DNA from: Candidatus Iainarchaeum sp.
GTDB taxonomy: Archaea; Iainarchaeota; Iainarchaeia; Iainarchaeales; DTGL01
Assembly: GCA_038886995.1 (NCBI GenBank)
Contig: JAWALG010000005.1
Span: 1 to 42,673 of the forward strand
Reading direction: 5' to 3'
DNA: 42,673 nucleotides
Positions 18,001-21,000 of this stretch are shown here, piece by piece. The first letter of the stretch is position 1. Each line of letters starts with the position of its first letter. Made by a program: the position numbers.

Positions 18001-21000
18001 GAAGACCTTGCAGAGGTAGAGGAATTTATTGAAGGCGAAAATACATTCCAAGAGGGTGAAAAGGTTCGCTCAGCTGTTGTTGGCTTCGCTGCTTATGACA
18101 GCAAAAACCACGAAGTAAAAGTTGTGCCAGACAAAAGGGTAAGGGTTTTTGAAATAGGCACAAAAGTTATAGGGCAGGTTGTTGCCTCAAGGAAGACAAG
18201 AATACTTGTGAATATAGCACCTCCAGAATGCAGTGGTGAGAGAGTTGTCTTGCCAAAGACAAAGGCAACACTTTTCGTTTCAAAAGTTGCTGACAGGTTT
18301 GTGAAAGATCTAAGCGAAGAATACAAGATAGGGGACATCATTGTTGCAGAAATAGATGACATAAAGCCATACGGCCTTTATCTTCGCACTAACAAGCCAA
18401 ACTTAGGGGTGCTGAAAGCATTTTGTTCAAGGTGTAGAGCGCCTTTGCATTACAAGGTGGGCCGGCTTGTTTGCAACAAATGCGGATCAATAGAGCGTAG
18501 AAAAATAAGTTCAGAATATTCTGTTAGAGATTGATTTGTATATCTAAATGGGGTGTTTTGATGGAGATTGAACTTATAAGGGCTGAAAAAGACCTTCTTG
18601 AATTCAAAATCAAAGGTGAGAGGCACACCTATCCGCAGCTTTTGAAATATTACCTTTTGAAAAACCCTGATGTTGCTTTTGCAGCTTATAAGCTTGAACA
18701 CCCTCTTGACAAGGACAGCATATTTATAGTAAAGGTGAAGAAGGGCACCCCGCTGCAAGCTTTAAAAGATGCAAACAAAGAGATAATTGCCGAGATTGAT
18801 GATTTTGCAGAGAAGCTTAAAGAAGCCCTTAAATAAAAATTATTTATGTGAGAAGAACATACGCGCTATTGGCATAGACGATGGCTTTTTCAAACCAAGG
18901 CAAAGTGGAAACACAAAAATTGTTGCAGTTCTAATGCGTGCAGATTCGCGAATAGAAGGAATTCTTTTTTCAGATGTAACTGTTGATGGTCTTGATTCAA
19001 CGCAAAGAATTATTGAAATGTTGTGCAGTAACAGGCCCAAGTTCATAGGCCAAGCAAAAGCAATCTTCCTTAGCGGAGTAAACTTTGCCGGCTTCAACAT
19101 AGTTGACATAGATGGGCTTTATTCAGTGCTCAAGACACCAATAATAGTGGTTTTCAGGAAGAAGCCGAGGATGCAAAAGATAAGAGAGGCACTTAAATGC
19201 TTCACGGATTCCAGTAAAAGAATGGGGCTAATAAAAAAAGCTGGTAGGATCTACCGTACTGATAAGATATTTTTCCAGTGTAAGGGAATAAAGCCAAAAC
19301 ATGCAAAAGCATTTATAAAAATTTTTTCTTTGCATTCAAACCTTCCCGAACCGGTTAGGGTTGCGCACCTCATAGCAAGTGCATCAACCTTGGGCAGAAG
19401 CACTTCACCTTAAATTTTTGATGTTTTAATTATTTTGCTGTGGTCGCATGTCTTCCAGGGAAAAACTCAGGCCGGGAAAGAAATTGAAAAAAGAGAAGAG
19501 TAAAACACGGGCCTTTCTCGAAAGAATTGCTAGTCAGCTTAGGTGGCTTGATCCATTCACCTACACCGATATCTTCCTTGAGAAGATTGGTCAAAAGGAA
19601 AATAAGCTTGTGGCATGGCCTGTTGAGCTTTTTGTTGCTTTTATAACAGCGTGGTTCCTTTACCTTTTTTTTGGTTTCTTGCTTGGTACAAAAACGCCCG
19701 CAGTAGTGGTTATGAGCGGCTCAATGATACCAACATTCTACAGAGGCGATATTATGGTTTTGCAAGGCGTCTCTTATGATACATTAAAAGCACCAGAGAT
19801 TGTTATCAATGAAAATATCCGCGGAAGGCGCATGCGTGAATATGCTGTTTCATATTGCTCCATTGGTGATAATAACGAACTTTTTGAATGTTCCAAGTAC
19901 TTTTCCCAGAGATGCAAAGGCGAAATTAAAACAAGAAAAATTTGCGTTGTAAGCACAGGTGAATGCATTGAAATTAGCAAAGATGCTGACATTGTTGTCT
20001 ACTTTTCTGATACACTACAAGAGCCGATAATACATCGGGCAGTTGCTAAGATAAAGGCAAATGATGGCTTCTTTGTGCTCACGAAAGGTGACAATGTGAA
20101 TACAAACTGTTTCATTGACCAAGAAGCAGGATTAGCAAGCAGAGCAGTCCCTATAGAGGCACTTGACGGAAAAACCATTTTTATGCTGCCCTACCTCGGT
20201 TATGTAAAGCTCTTCCTTATGGATGACCTCCCTTGCATAATTAGTAACCTTATAAGGTCAGGAAGCTACACTGTATGCACTAGATATTGGCCTGATGGCC
20301 GACTTGGCTTTGGCTGAATCAAAATGCTACTTTTTTAAACCTAAACTCTGTATTTTTTTACATGGTTACTGCTAGTGAGCTTAAAGAGATTGGCTTTAGT
20401 GAGGAGCAAGCAAAGTCGCTTTTGGAAGACAGCTACTTTAAGAAGAATTATGGCTCCTGGGCAAAGGAGCGCCTAACAGTGAAGATAAATCTCATAATTT
20501 CATTTTATGGAATCAAAAACGCACAGAGGGTTTTTAGTGCTATCGCAAATTACCCAAAATTTCTTGACTGCAACCATGAGAAAGCAATTCTTAAACTTAG
20601 TGAATTCCTTCCACAACTTAAAAAAAGCAAAATAGCAGAGCTTATTCTAGCAAACCCTTCTCTTGTTTCACTGGACTGCAAGAAAGCATTTGCATCAGCG
20701 ACAAAGGTTTATGGTAAGGAAAATGCCCCTGATGTTCTGATATCCCTCCTCACATTTCCCGGCTTTTCAAAGAAAAACCACAGAAAGAACCTTCAGAAGC
20801 TTCTTAAGATTTATGGCAAAGAGTACAAGCAAAGCATAATTCAAGCAATGCTTCGTGTTCCAGATTTTCCTAACTTCAACCATAAAAAGGCCCTTGAAAA
20901 TGTCTTAAGGGAAGGTAAGGCAGCAGGGCTTACTGAAAAGCAGTGCGTTGATATTCTTCTCAACATAGGCGCAAAATCTGATTTTTCAATTAAAGGTGCT

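Follow-up and report, generated by a model that had tools for sequence, protein, structure and literature searches.

Can an archaeal lineage transcribe without the cleavage factor TFS, and what would make this possible? The question is raised by a gene cluster of Candidatus Iainarchaeum sp., which lies in a window of 42,673 nucleotides (the whole stretch of contig JAWALG010000005.1 that was analysed). A preliminary description of this cluster had held that it lacks tfs, the gene that would normally follow rpoL, and that a DUF99 gene is found there instead. According to PMC7289017, TFS is present in all archaea except Methanopyrus kandleri.

Gene order and the usual place of tfs

The cluster comprises the following features.

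17968..18534, +: csl4, exosome RNA-binding subunit, which opens the conserved cluster (NF034126, E 2.9e-45, over cut-off; PF14382)
18561..18836, +: rpoL (Rpo11), RNA polymerase subunit (PF13656, E 3.9e-20)
18799..19413, +: DUF99/endonuclease dU, an ordinary cluster member (PF01949, E 3.7e-57)
19448..20317, +: archaeal signal peptidase I (TIGR02228, E 2.4e-19, over cut-off)
20318..21089, no strand: ancestral tfs slot, two 44-base spacers flanking one unrelated ORF
20362..21045, +: 227-aa helical-repeat ORF inside the slot, mTERF-like (a lead only)
21090..21467, +: 125-aa protein with no family match, related by BLAST to the gene 3' of tfs in out-groups
21469..22224, +: PCNA, the usual neighbour 3' of tfs (PF00705/PF02747)
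23223..23945, +: second PCNA (PF00705/PF02747)
23998..25023, +: PriL, primase large subunit, which closes the cluster (PF04104, E 9e-20)

None of these genes is tfs, in agreement with the preliminary description. The closest relatives of the RpoL encoded here bear the name Ca. Iainarchaeum. The DUF99 gene probably starts at the ATG at 18799, overlapping rpoL, the longest frame running from 18787. An EamA gene lies between the two PCNA genes. The 125-aa protein, which presumably has an OB-fold or RPA3-like look, matches the gene after tfs in two out-group loci (L104 and L113; BLAST E 5e-15 and 9e-14).

The usual position of tfs was established from 50 out-group loci with flanks of 1.5–2 kb, in which neighbours were labelled by BLAST to the genes of the window, so that some remain unlabelled. 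The signal peptidase is the labelled gene before tfs in 23 of the 50 loci, DUF99 lies upstream within the same run in 15, and PCNA follows 3' of tfs in 25. By contrast, the closest labelled gene upstream of tfs is rpoL in just five, and the claim that tfs normally follows rpoL is thus not borne out. Since tfs also adjoins PCNA in 12 of the 27 genomes considered in PMC2643942, the tfs slot is placed between the signal peptidase and PCNA. DUF99 is an ordinary neighbour in clusters that do contain tfs, and of 30 Iainarchaeota loci no more than 11 have it as the next gene 3' of rpoL (signal peptidase in 11, a band-7 gene in four, other genes in three, a contig end in one); it was rejected as a replacement for TFS, and "instead" had been the wrong word.

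In Iainarchaeota the slot is closed. The peptidase is followed by PCNA or by the gene of the 125-aa protein within 191 bases in eight of nine loci, and the slot measures at most 190 bases in seven of eight highly complete or contiguous genomes, the remaining one being rearranged; the two sets have two genomes in common. In the window, the slot (20318..21089) holds neither tfs nor a remnant of it. The ORF at 20362..21045 that occupies it gives a match to Pfam mTERF (PF02536) with an E value of 0.0019 and 17.6 bits against a cut-off of 23.1, and its Atlas structure aligns to mTERF clusters with TM values of 0.56–0.62. It has no relative in the PDB, and its single-sequence model (pLDDT 51) is too poor to use. 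A homologue was found only in L092, a close relative, among 35 rpoL loci, most of which are too short to contain the whole slot. The ORF is a late insertion and not a general substitute for TFS.

Absence of detectable TFS homologues in Iainarchaeota

The genome that contains the window (865,833 bases on 38 contigs, 88.6% complete) yields no TFS with TIGR01384 (best E 0.005) or PF01096 (best E 0.76). Three custom TFS profiles, built from 22 canonical sequences, from 56 canonical and diverged sequences, and from 15 diverged sequences only, were run unfiltered over its 18,195 six-frame frames; the best E values were 0.011, 0.006 and 0.05, and none of these matches covers the acidic hairpin. The search was extended to 215 Iainarchaeota genomes, 58 of them at least 90% complete. 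TIGR01384 is over cut-off in none of them (141 weak matches), and neither is PF01096 (26 weak matches, the best with 18.2 bits against a cut-off of 21). The best 30 TIGR01384 loci and the 26 PF01096 loci proved on inspection to be other zinc ribbons, the former being what we take to be ribosomal and other small zinc ribbon proteins. A profile from an alignment of 32 sequences that includes diverged TFS members (A1) matches in five of the 215 genomes at E<=1e-4, in each case within profile positions 2–80 and short of the hairpin. The two-ribbon architecture of TFS is thus found in none of the 215 genomes with TIGR01384 and A1, and a TFIIS-type C-ribbon with the DE hairpin, alone or fused, was found neither by PF01096 in the 215 genomes nor by the unfiltered scans of the genome of the window. 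The absence of TFS from this genome and its phylum, as first described, holds.

That this absence arises from incomplete assemblies or overlooked small genes is hardly credible. The genome of the window is indeed incomplete, and one 96%-complete genome from outside the phylum (G303) is without TFS even though the three other members of its genus have it. The searches were, however, carried out in six frames and include 58 high-quality genomes, some of them on one contig; RpoL, a protein of similar size that served as positive control, was detected in 205 of the 215 genomes and in 57 of the 58 high-quality ones; and the slot itself is assembled and closed. Because of the phylum-wide profile results and the recovery of RpoL, incompleteness cannot explain the missing factor.

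The preliminary description had also allowed for a diverged or non-homologous cleavage factor. Diverged forms can hide, as is evident from a compact family in Micrarchaeota that TIGR01384 overlooked at E<=1e-6. On the other hand, PF01096 is over cut-off on 11 of 14 diverged TFS-like proteins of Micrarchaeota and is therefore able to see such forms, and in Iainarchaeota no match over the hairpin came from the profiles with diverged members. GreA/B (PF01272, with nine bacteria as control) is absent from the five Iainarchaeota genomes, out of 215, in which it was sought. A further candidate is a family found in at least 12 Iainarchaeota genomes that consists of an N-ribbon matching that of TFS (hhalign 96%, 35 columns), followed by a conserved C-terminal acidic-hydrophobic motif of its own, and that is encoded among varied neighbours. 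It has neither a C-ribbon nor a DE hairpin, and the genome of the window and three of five others yielded no member of it. A structure prediction of this protein with A'' of the same genome scored 0.00 and is uninformative either way. We therefore regard a hidden factor, whether a TFS diverged beyond detection, a non-homologous protein or this N-ribbon family, as decidedly improbable; Iainarchaeota very probably have no functional TFS homologue.

Distribution across archaea and the DPANN cluster 1 clade

Among 86 archaeal genomes from outside the phylum, TIGR01384 is over cut-off in 69. Sixteen of the 17 genomes that lack TFS fall, four each, into four groups, namely a Methanopyrus-type genus, Micrarchaeota and two phyla here called A and B; the last is G303. 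Outside these groups, TFS is present in 69 of 70 genomes. The first group (TFS in none of four genomes) comprises one high-GC genus, whose polymerase evolves fast, and is most likely Methanopyrus, the known case. In larger samples, TIGR01384 is over cut-off in none of 251 Micrarchaeota, none of 61 genomes of A and none of 31 of B. PF01096, applied to the 31 genomes of B, 45 of the 61 of A and the four of the Methanopyrus type, is over cut-off in two of 80, neither of which is TFS on inspection. The scope of Iainarchaeota and Micrarchaeota originally given to the TFS-less state is correct for canonical TFS in both phyla, but too narrow, as A and B share this state.

An RNA-polymerase tree of 42 of 80 genomes (IQ-TREE, 2213 columns, LG+G4) unites Iainarchaeota, Micrarchaeota, A and B in one clade with an SH-aLRT value of 99, the sister of which is formed by ten TFS-bearing genomes. 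The same four-phylum clade, again with SH-aLRT 99, is obtained under LG+C20 after removal of the trigger loop and of all discriminating columns. In a FastTree analysis of all 80 taxa, phylum A falls outside the clade without support, and the long-branched, TFS-bearing G223 is placed inside Iainarchaeota; G223 was excluded from later trees. Because DPANN cluster 1, as delimited in PMC13473441, consists of just Iainarchaeota, Micrarchaeota, Altiarchaeota and B1Sed10-29, and our trees have the same shape, A and B are probably Altiarchaeota and B1Sed10-29, respectively. With respect to the RNA polymerase, DPANN cluster 1 is one clade. The absence pattern is present in the 2026 supplementary table of that study (Suppl. 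Data 25 of PMC13473441), where arCOG00579 has an occurrence of 0% in Altiarchaeota and 0% in Micrarchaeota, and a presence probability of 0.15 in the cluster-1 ancestor versus 0.8 for its sister. The same table gives 14.3% for Iainarchaeota, which counts against the absence reading.

Micrarchaeota are not entirely devoid of TFS-like proteins. The broader alignment matches in 17 of 201 genomes, all from families f65 and f76, and a real DE-bearing gene is present in 15 of 92 genomes of these two families versus none of 109 in the other families. The view that Micrarchaeota lack TFS thus stands for the canonical protein only. Three forms occur: a full-length diverged protein, a compact protein of 81–88 aa with a short linker, and a fusion of DUF6879 with a C-ribbon, of which there are two. 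Both zinc ribbons are kept, or the C-ribbon alone, and the DE pair is invariant in all 15 aligned proteins together with the C-terminal zinc ribbon. They stay below the TIGR01384 equivalog cut-off (best 41.7 bits versus 64.75). Their fetched loci are without signal peptidase or PCNA neighbours and have otherwise varying surroundings, and BLAST of five of them recovered no gene of the cluster. A tree of 14 diverged proteins and 36 canonical TFS separates the former from the latter as a single group (92/92, with the bootstrap still unsettled and long-branch warnings).

This grouping could be taken to mean that the cluster-1 ancestor still had TFS, that the f65/f76 genes are its fast-evolving descendants, and that the factor was lost, and the proline or glycine at the polymerase hinge described below acquired, several times independently. 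Such a history accords with the threonine that f65/f76 genomes mostly keep at this hinge and with the placement of Altiarchaeota, which is contested according to PMC13473441. It would nonetheless require at least four losses plus many more within f65/f76, where carriers are few; the surroundings of the f65/f76 genes do not recall the ancestral cluster; and long branches may falsely group diverged genes. We consider repeated loss unlikely, and one ancestral loss of TFS, at the base of DPANN cluster 1, likely. In this event, tfs would have been deleted once from a cluster with the order csl4-rpoL-DUF99-signal peptidase-[tfs]-PCNA in the cluster-1 ancestor, and the two Micrarchaeota families would have gained diverged TFS-like genes later and patchily.

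The polymerase trigger loop and comparison with known systems

With G223 left out, the TFS-bearing genomes have 649 polymerase columns with a conservation of 85% or more, and 14 of these have been lost by three or more of the four phyla. Among these 14 are T97 and T115 of Pyrococcus A'', the former located at the C-terminal hinge of the trigger loop and the latter after it. T97 corresponds to yeast T1095 by its offset from H87, equivalent to H1085 (PMC3737540), a spacing that agrees with the residues named in PMC12391331. The counts at T97 were taken over both samples and include seven of eight unparsed rows that were read by eye, G223 being again omitted. Threonine is found in 57 of 58 TFS-bearing genomes, but in none of 21 genomes of A (all Pro), none of 22 of B (16 Pro), none of ten Micrarchaeota outside f65/f76 (eight Pro) and two of 19 Iainarchaeota (13 Gly, the genome of the window included). 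If f65/f76 are set aside, 70 of 72 cluster-1 genomes thus have another residue in place of the hinge threonine, most often Pro or Gly; in f65/f76 the threonine is found in 19 of 22 genomes. At T115, Thr is present in 50 of the 56 TFS-bearing genomes and in eight of the 88 cluster-1 genomes that could be parsed, and many different residues replace it. Both threonines are replaced in cluster 1. As one or two evolutionary events underlie it, the correlation at the hinge cannot be separated statistically from the clade. Within f65/f76, the threonine does not follow the TFS-like genes genome by genome: ten of ten further near-complete genomes, most with the hinge threonine, carry no such gene under a profile that recovers, at E 1e-35, two genomes known to have one and closely related to the profile's own members.

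Other changes of the polymerase were discarded as marks of TFS loss. A Phe-to-Lys replacement before the trigger-loop His of Iainarchaeota is shared by four TFS-bearing genomes (G228, G251, G272 and G293) and does not occur in most A, B and Micrarchaeota. The jaw, which binds the N-ribbon of TFS (binding sites taken from PMC8448823), is short only in A (69–71 residues in seven of eight, versus about 86). The rate of polymerase evolution, measured as a distance ratio to EF2+S7+S12, is 1.30 in Iainarchaeota (nine genomes) versus 0.97–1.08 in TFS-bearing genomes (nine genomes), 1.17 in B, 0.96 in Micrarchaeota (three genomes) and 2.0 in the Methanopyrus type. A version with S12 only shows no excess in cluster 1, and no cluster-wide acceleration was seen.

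The threonines might have drifted after the loss of tfs without compensating for it. TFIIS is reported to displace the trigger loop into a locked state (PMC3737540), and if both residues merely parked the loop for the entry of TFS, they would have become dispensable in slow growers that tolerate backtracking. The variety of residues at T115 fits such relaxation, as do the raised ratio of the Iainarchaeota polymerase and the odd bridge-helix and trigger-loop changes that it has besides T97 and T115. The proline, however, is fixed in A and prevalent in B and in the other Micrarchaeota, a pattern that looks selected, acceleration was not seen across the whole cluster, and Methanopyrus-type genomes, which have also lost TFS, still have T97. 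Simple drift is, in our judgement, possible but rather unlikely.

The hinge may instead have been altered in a way that made the factor less needed. In yeast, a hydrogen bond between T1095 and E1103 has been proposed to stabilise the open trigger loop, and its loss may destabilise this state (PMC3778554); the E1103G enzyme is faster and error-prone, leaves the 1-bp backtracked state sooner and populates it less (PMC3778554). By analogy with this partner residue, E1103, rather than with mutants of T1095 (on which the accessible part of PMC5127505 contains nothing), loss of the hinge threonine would break the contact that holds the loop open; the loop would then close faster and the polymerase would stay backtracked for less time. 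Rare arrests would be cleared by forward sliding or by slow intrinsic cleavage, probably at some cost in fidelity. That the hinge change is such an anti-backtracking compensation is, in our view, somewhat less likely than not. The threonine is retained in all three Methanopyrus-type genomes, which are TFS-less, an observation that goes against the compensation reading, as do the f65/f76 genomes that have the threonine and no TFS-like gene.

A second form of compensation would be an active site that proofreads by itself. The Gre-less cyanobacteria provide the precedent, as changes of their trigger loop and bridge helix (A940V, G1136Q, F773V and N792D) raise hydrolysis 3- to 11-fold (PMC7026648), and the archaeal changes sit in the same hinge. 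But the trigger loop of Pyrococcus is reported to be dispensable for intrinsic cleavage (PMC3737540), T1135V is among the changes tested in PMC7026648 and is not named, in the part available, as raising hydrolysis, and the residue adjoining the hinge threonine varies in TFS-bearing genomes as well. Enhanced intrinsic hydrolysis is accordingly a quite unlikely explanation.

Taken as a whole, a single loss of tfs in cluster 1, together with a polymerase biased against backtracking, is the account that we favour as reasonably probable. On this account, no factor would bring an acidic pair into the active site of the polymerase when Iainarchaeota transcribe. A bolder version can be offered only tentatively: the cluster-1 ancestor may have dropped its cleavage factor, exchanged the hinge Thr for Pro and lost the second Thr. 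This rewiring would give a factor-independent, backtrack-resistant polymerase of the archaeal-eukaryotic type; later, in one branch of Micrarchaeota, a new miniature TFS family may have been acquired and the threonine restored. If true, such a history would amount to a natural experiment in both directions, naming the polymerase residues which set the dependence on TFIIS-like factors.

As the preliminary description had stated, M. kandleri is the only archaeon named as TFS-less in the passages seen of PMC7289017, PMC5715097 and PMC2643942. Supplementary Table 1 of PMC5715097 (2017) gives a "?" for Iainarchaeum, a question mark that the present data close. The word TFS does not occur in the accessible main text of PMC13473441, nor is the factor mentioned in that of PMC13257274. 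A loss in cluster 1 is stated in no text that we found; large supplements (PMC7414124), figures S14–S18 of PMC13473441, Brochier 2004 and subscription journals were beyond the scope of this search and may note it. The TFS-less state is widened from one odd genus to about half of DPANN. Both the gene loss and the change of the catalytic loop, being shared, bear on the disputed placement of Altiarchaeota, and two residues become candidates for a role in backtracking and in TFIIS/TFS dependence that is testable in the Pyrococcus polymerase and in yeast Pol II.

Four known systems invite comparison. Methanopyrus kandleri lacks TFS as cluster 1 does, and the Methanopyrus-type genus in our sample shows the fast polymerase evolution reported for it. 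It represents a separate event in one genus as opposed to four phyla; acceleration in cluster 1 is modest or absent; and the hinge threonine, lost in cluster 1, is kept there. The TFS2 of Crenarchaeota, which has an N-ribbon and no C-ribbon (PMC5715097), is equal in architecture to the N-ribbon family of Iainarchaeota, orthology not being implied, whereas the conserved C-terminal motif is peculiar to the latter. With canonical TFS/TFS1 (TIGR01384, arCOG00579), the diverged proteins of Micrarchaeota have the zinc ribbon(s) and the invariant DE pair in common; they differ in their scores, in their patchy occurrence outside the usual cluster, in the compact form that is without most of the linker, and in the two fusions. 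The Gre-less cyanobacteria (PMC7026648) are likewise a large lineage that has no secondary-channel cleavage factor and has lineage-specific residues at the trigger-loop hinge. Cluster 1 also has lineage-specific residues within its trigger loop and its bridge helix, which differ from the cyanobacterial ones. The cyanobacterial enzyme is bacterial, and its compensation by intrinsic hydrolysis has been measured; as the archaeal loop is reportedly unneeded for hydrolysis, the archaeal route probably differs from the cyanobacterial one.

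Genes around the former tfs position

The slot between the signal peptidase and PCNA, where the gene of the transcript cleavage factor TFS formerly lay, is occupied in the window by an open reading frame of helical-repeat character:

20362-21045, plus strand: helical-repeat ORF in the former tfs slot

The ORF is found as one copy in its own genome, and is also present in a close relative (L092). An mTERF-like fold is a lead only, with Atlas TM values of 0.56-0.62 and a Pfam E of 0.002. Two PCNA paralogues are located in the cluster (21469-22224 and 23223-23945), a pairing also seen in several further Iainarchaeota. 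DUF99 lacks an in-frame start downstream of rpoL; the likely ATG falls inside rpoL, with an overlap of its final 38 bases (18799-18836), as in close relatives.

RNA polymerase of TFS-less phyla

The A' and A'' subunits are separate in most other sampled Iainarchaeota, whereas the genome holding the window (G000) encodes them in one frame:

Contig C25, 12807-16613, minus strand: fused A'+A'', single 1269-aa frame

A fused frame is also found in most genomes of phylum A (inferred Altiarchaeota), in which the A'' jaw domain is about 16 residues shorter (L202-L208, L249). RNA polymerase alignments show that a B'' Gln column is lost across the TFS-less phyla, with replacement by His in phylum A, phylum B (inferred B1Sed10-29) and Micrarchaeota, by Arg in Iainarchaeota, and by Val in the Methanopyrus-type genus. 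Two A' columns close to active-site motifs, one Gly and one Met, are likewise lost.

Diverged and partial TFS-like proteins

Two Micrarchaeota families (f65 and f76) contain a compact two-ribbon TFS-like family of 81-88 aa that retains the DE pair, nearly lacks the linker, and is undetected by the canonical profile TIGR01384. Full-length diverged TFS-likes are housed in accessory clusters (L133, L135, L136, L145; wider regions L329-L333), next to what we take, from sequence, to be CYTH-like, radical SAM, thymidylate-kinase-like or ribonucleotide reductase genes.

L338-L345, L347, L348, L351: compact TFS-like family, Micrarchaeota f65/f76
L134, 970-1638, and L346, 952-1644: DUF6879 fused to a TFIIS-type C-ribbon bearing the DE pair
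L007, L009-L012, L017, L025-L027, L034, L377, L378: N-ribbon-only family, Iainarchaeota

The Iainarchaeota family consists of a TFS/RPB9-like N-ribbon, a conserved basic helix and an acidic-hydrophobic C-terminus; no member was detected in G000. Its architecture, an N-ribbon without a C-ribbon, resembles that of crenarchaeal TFS2.
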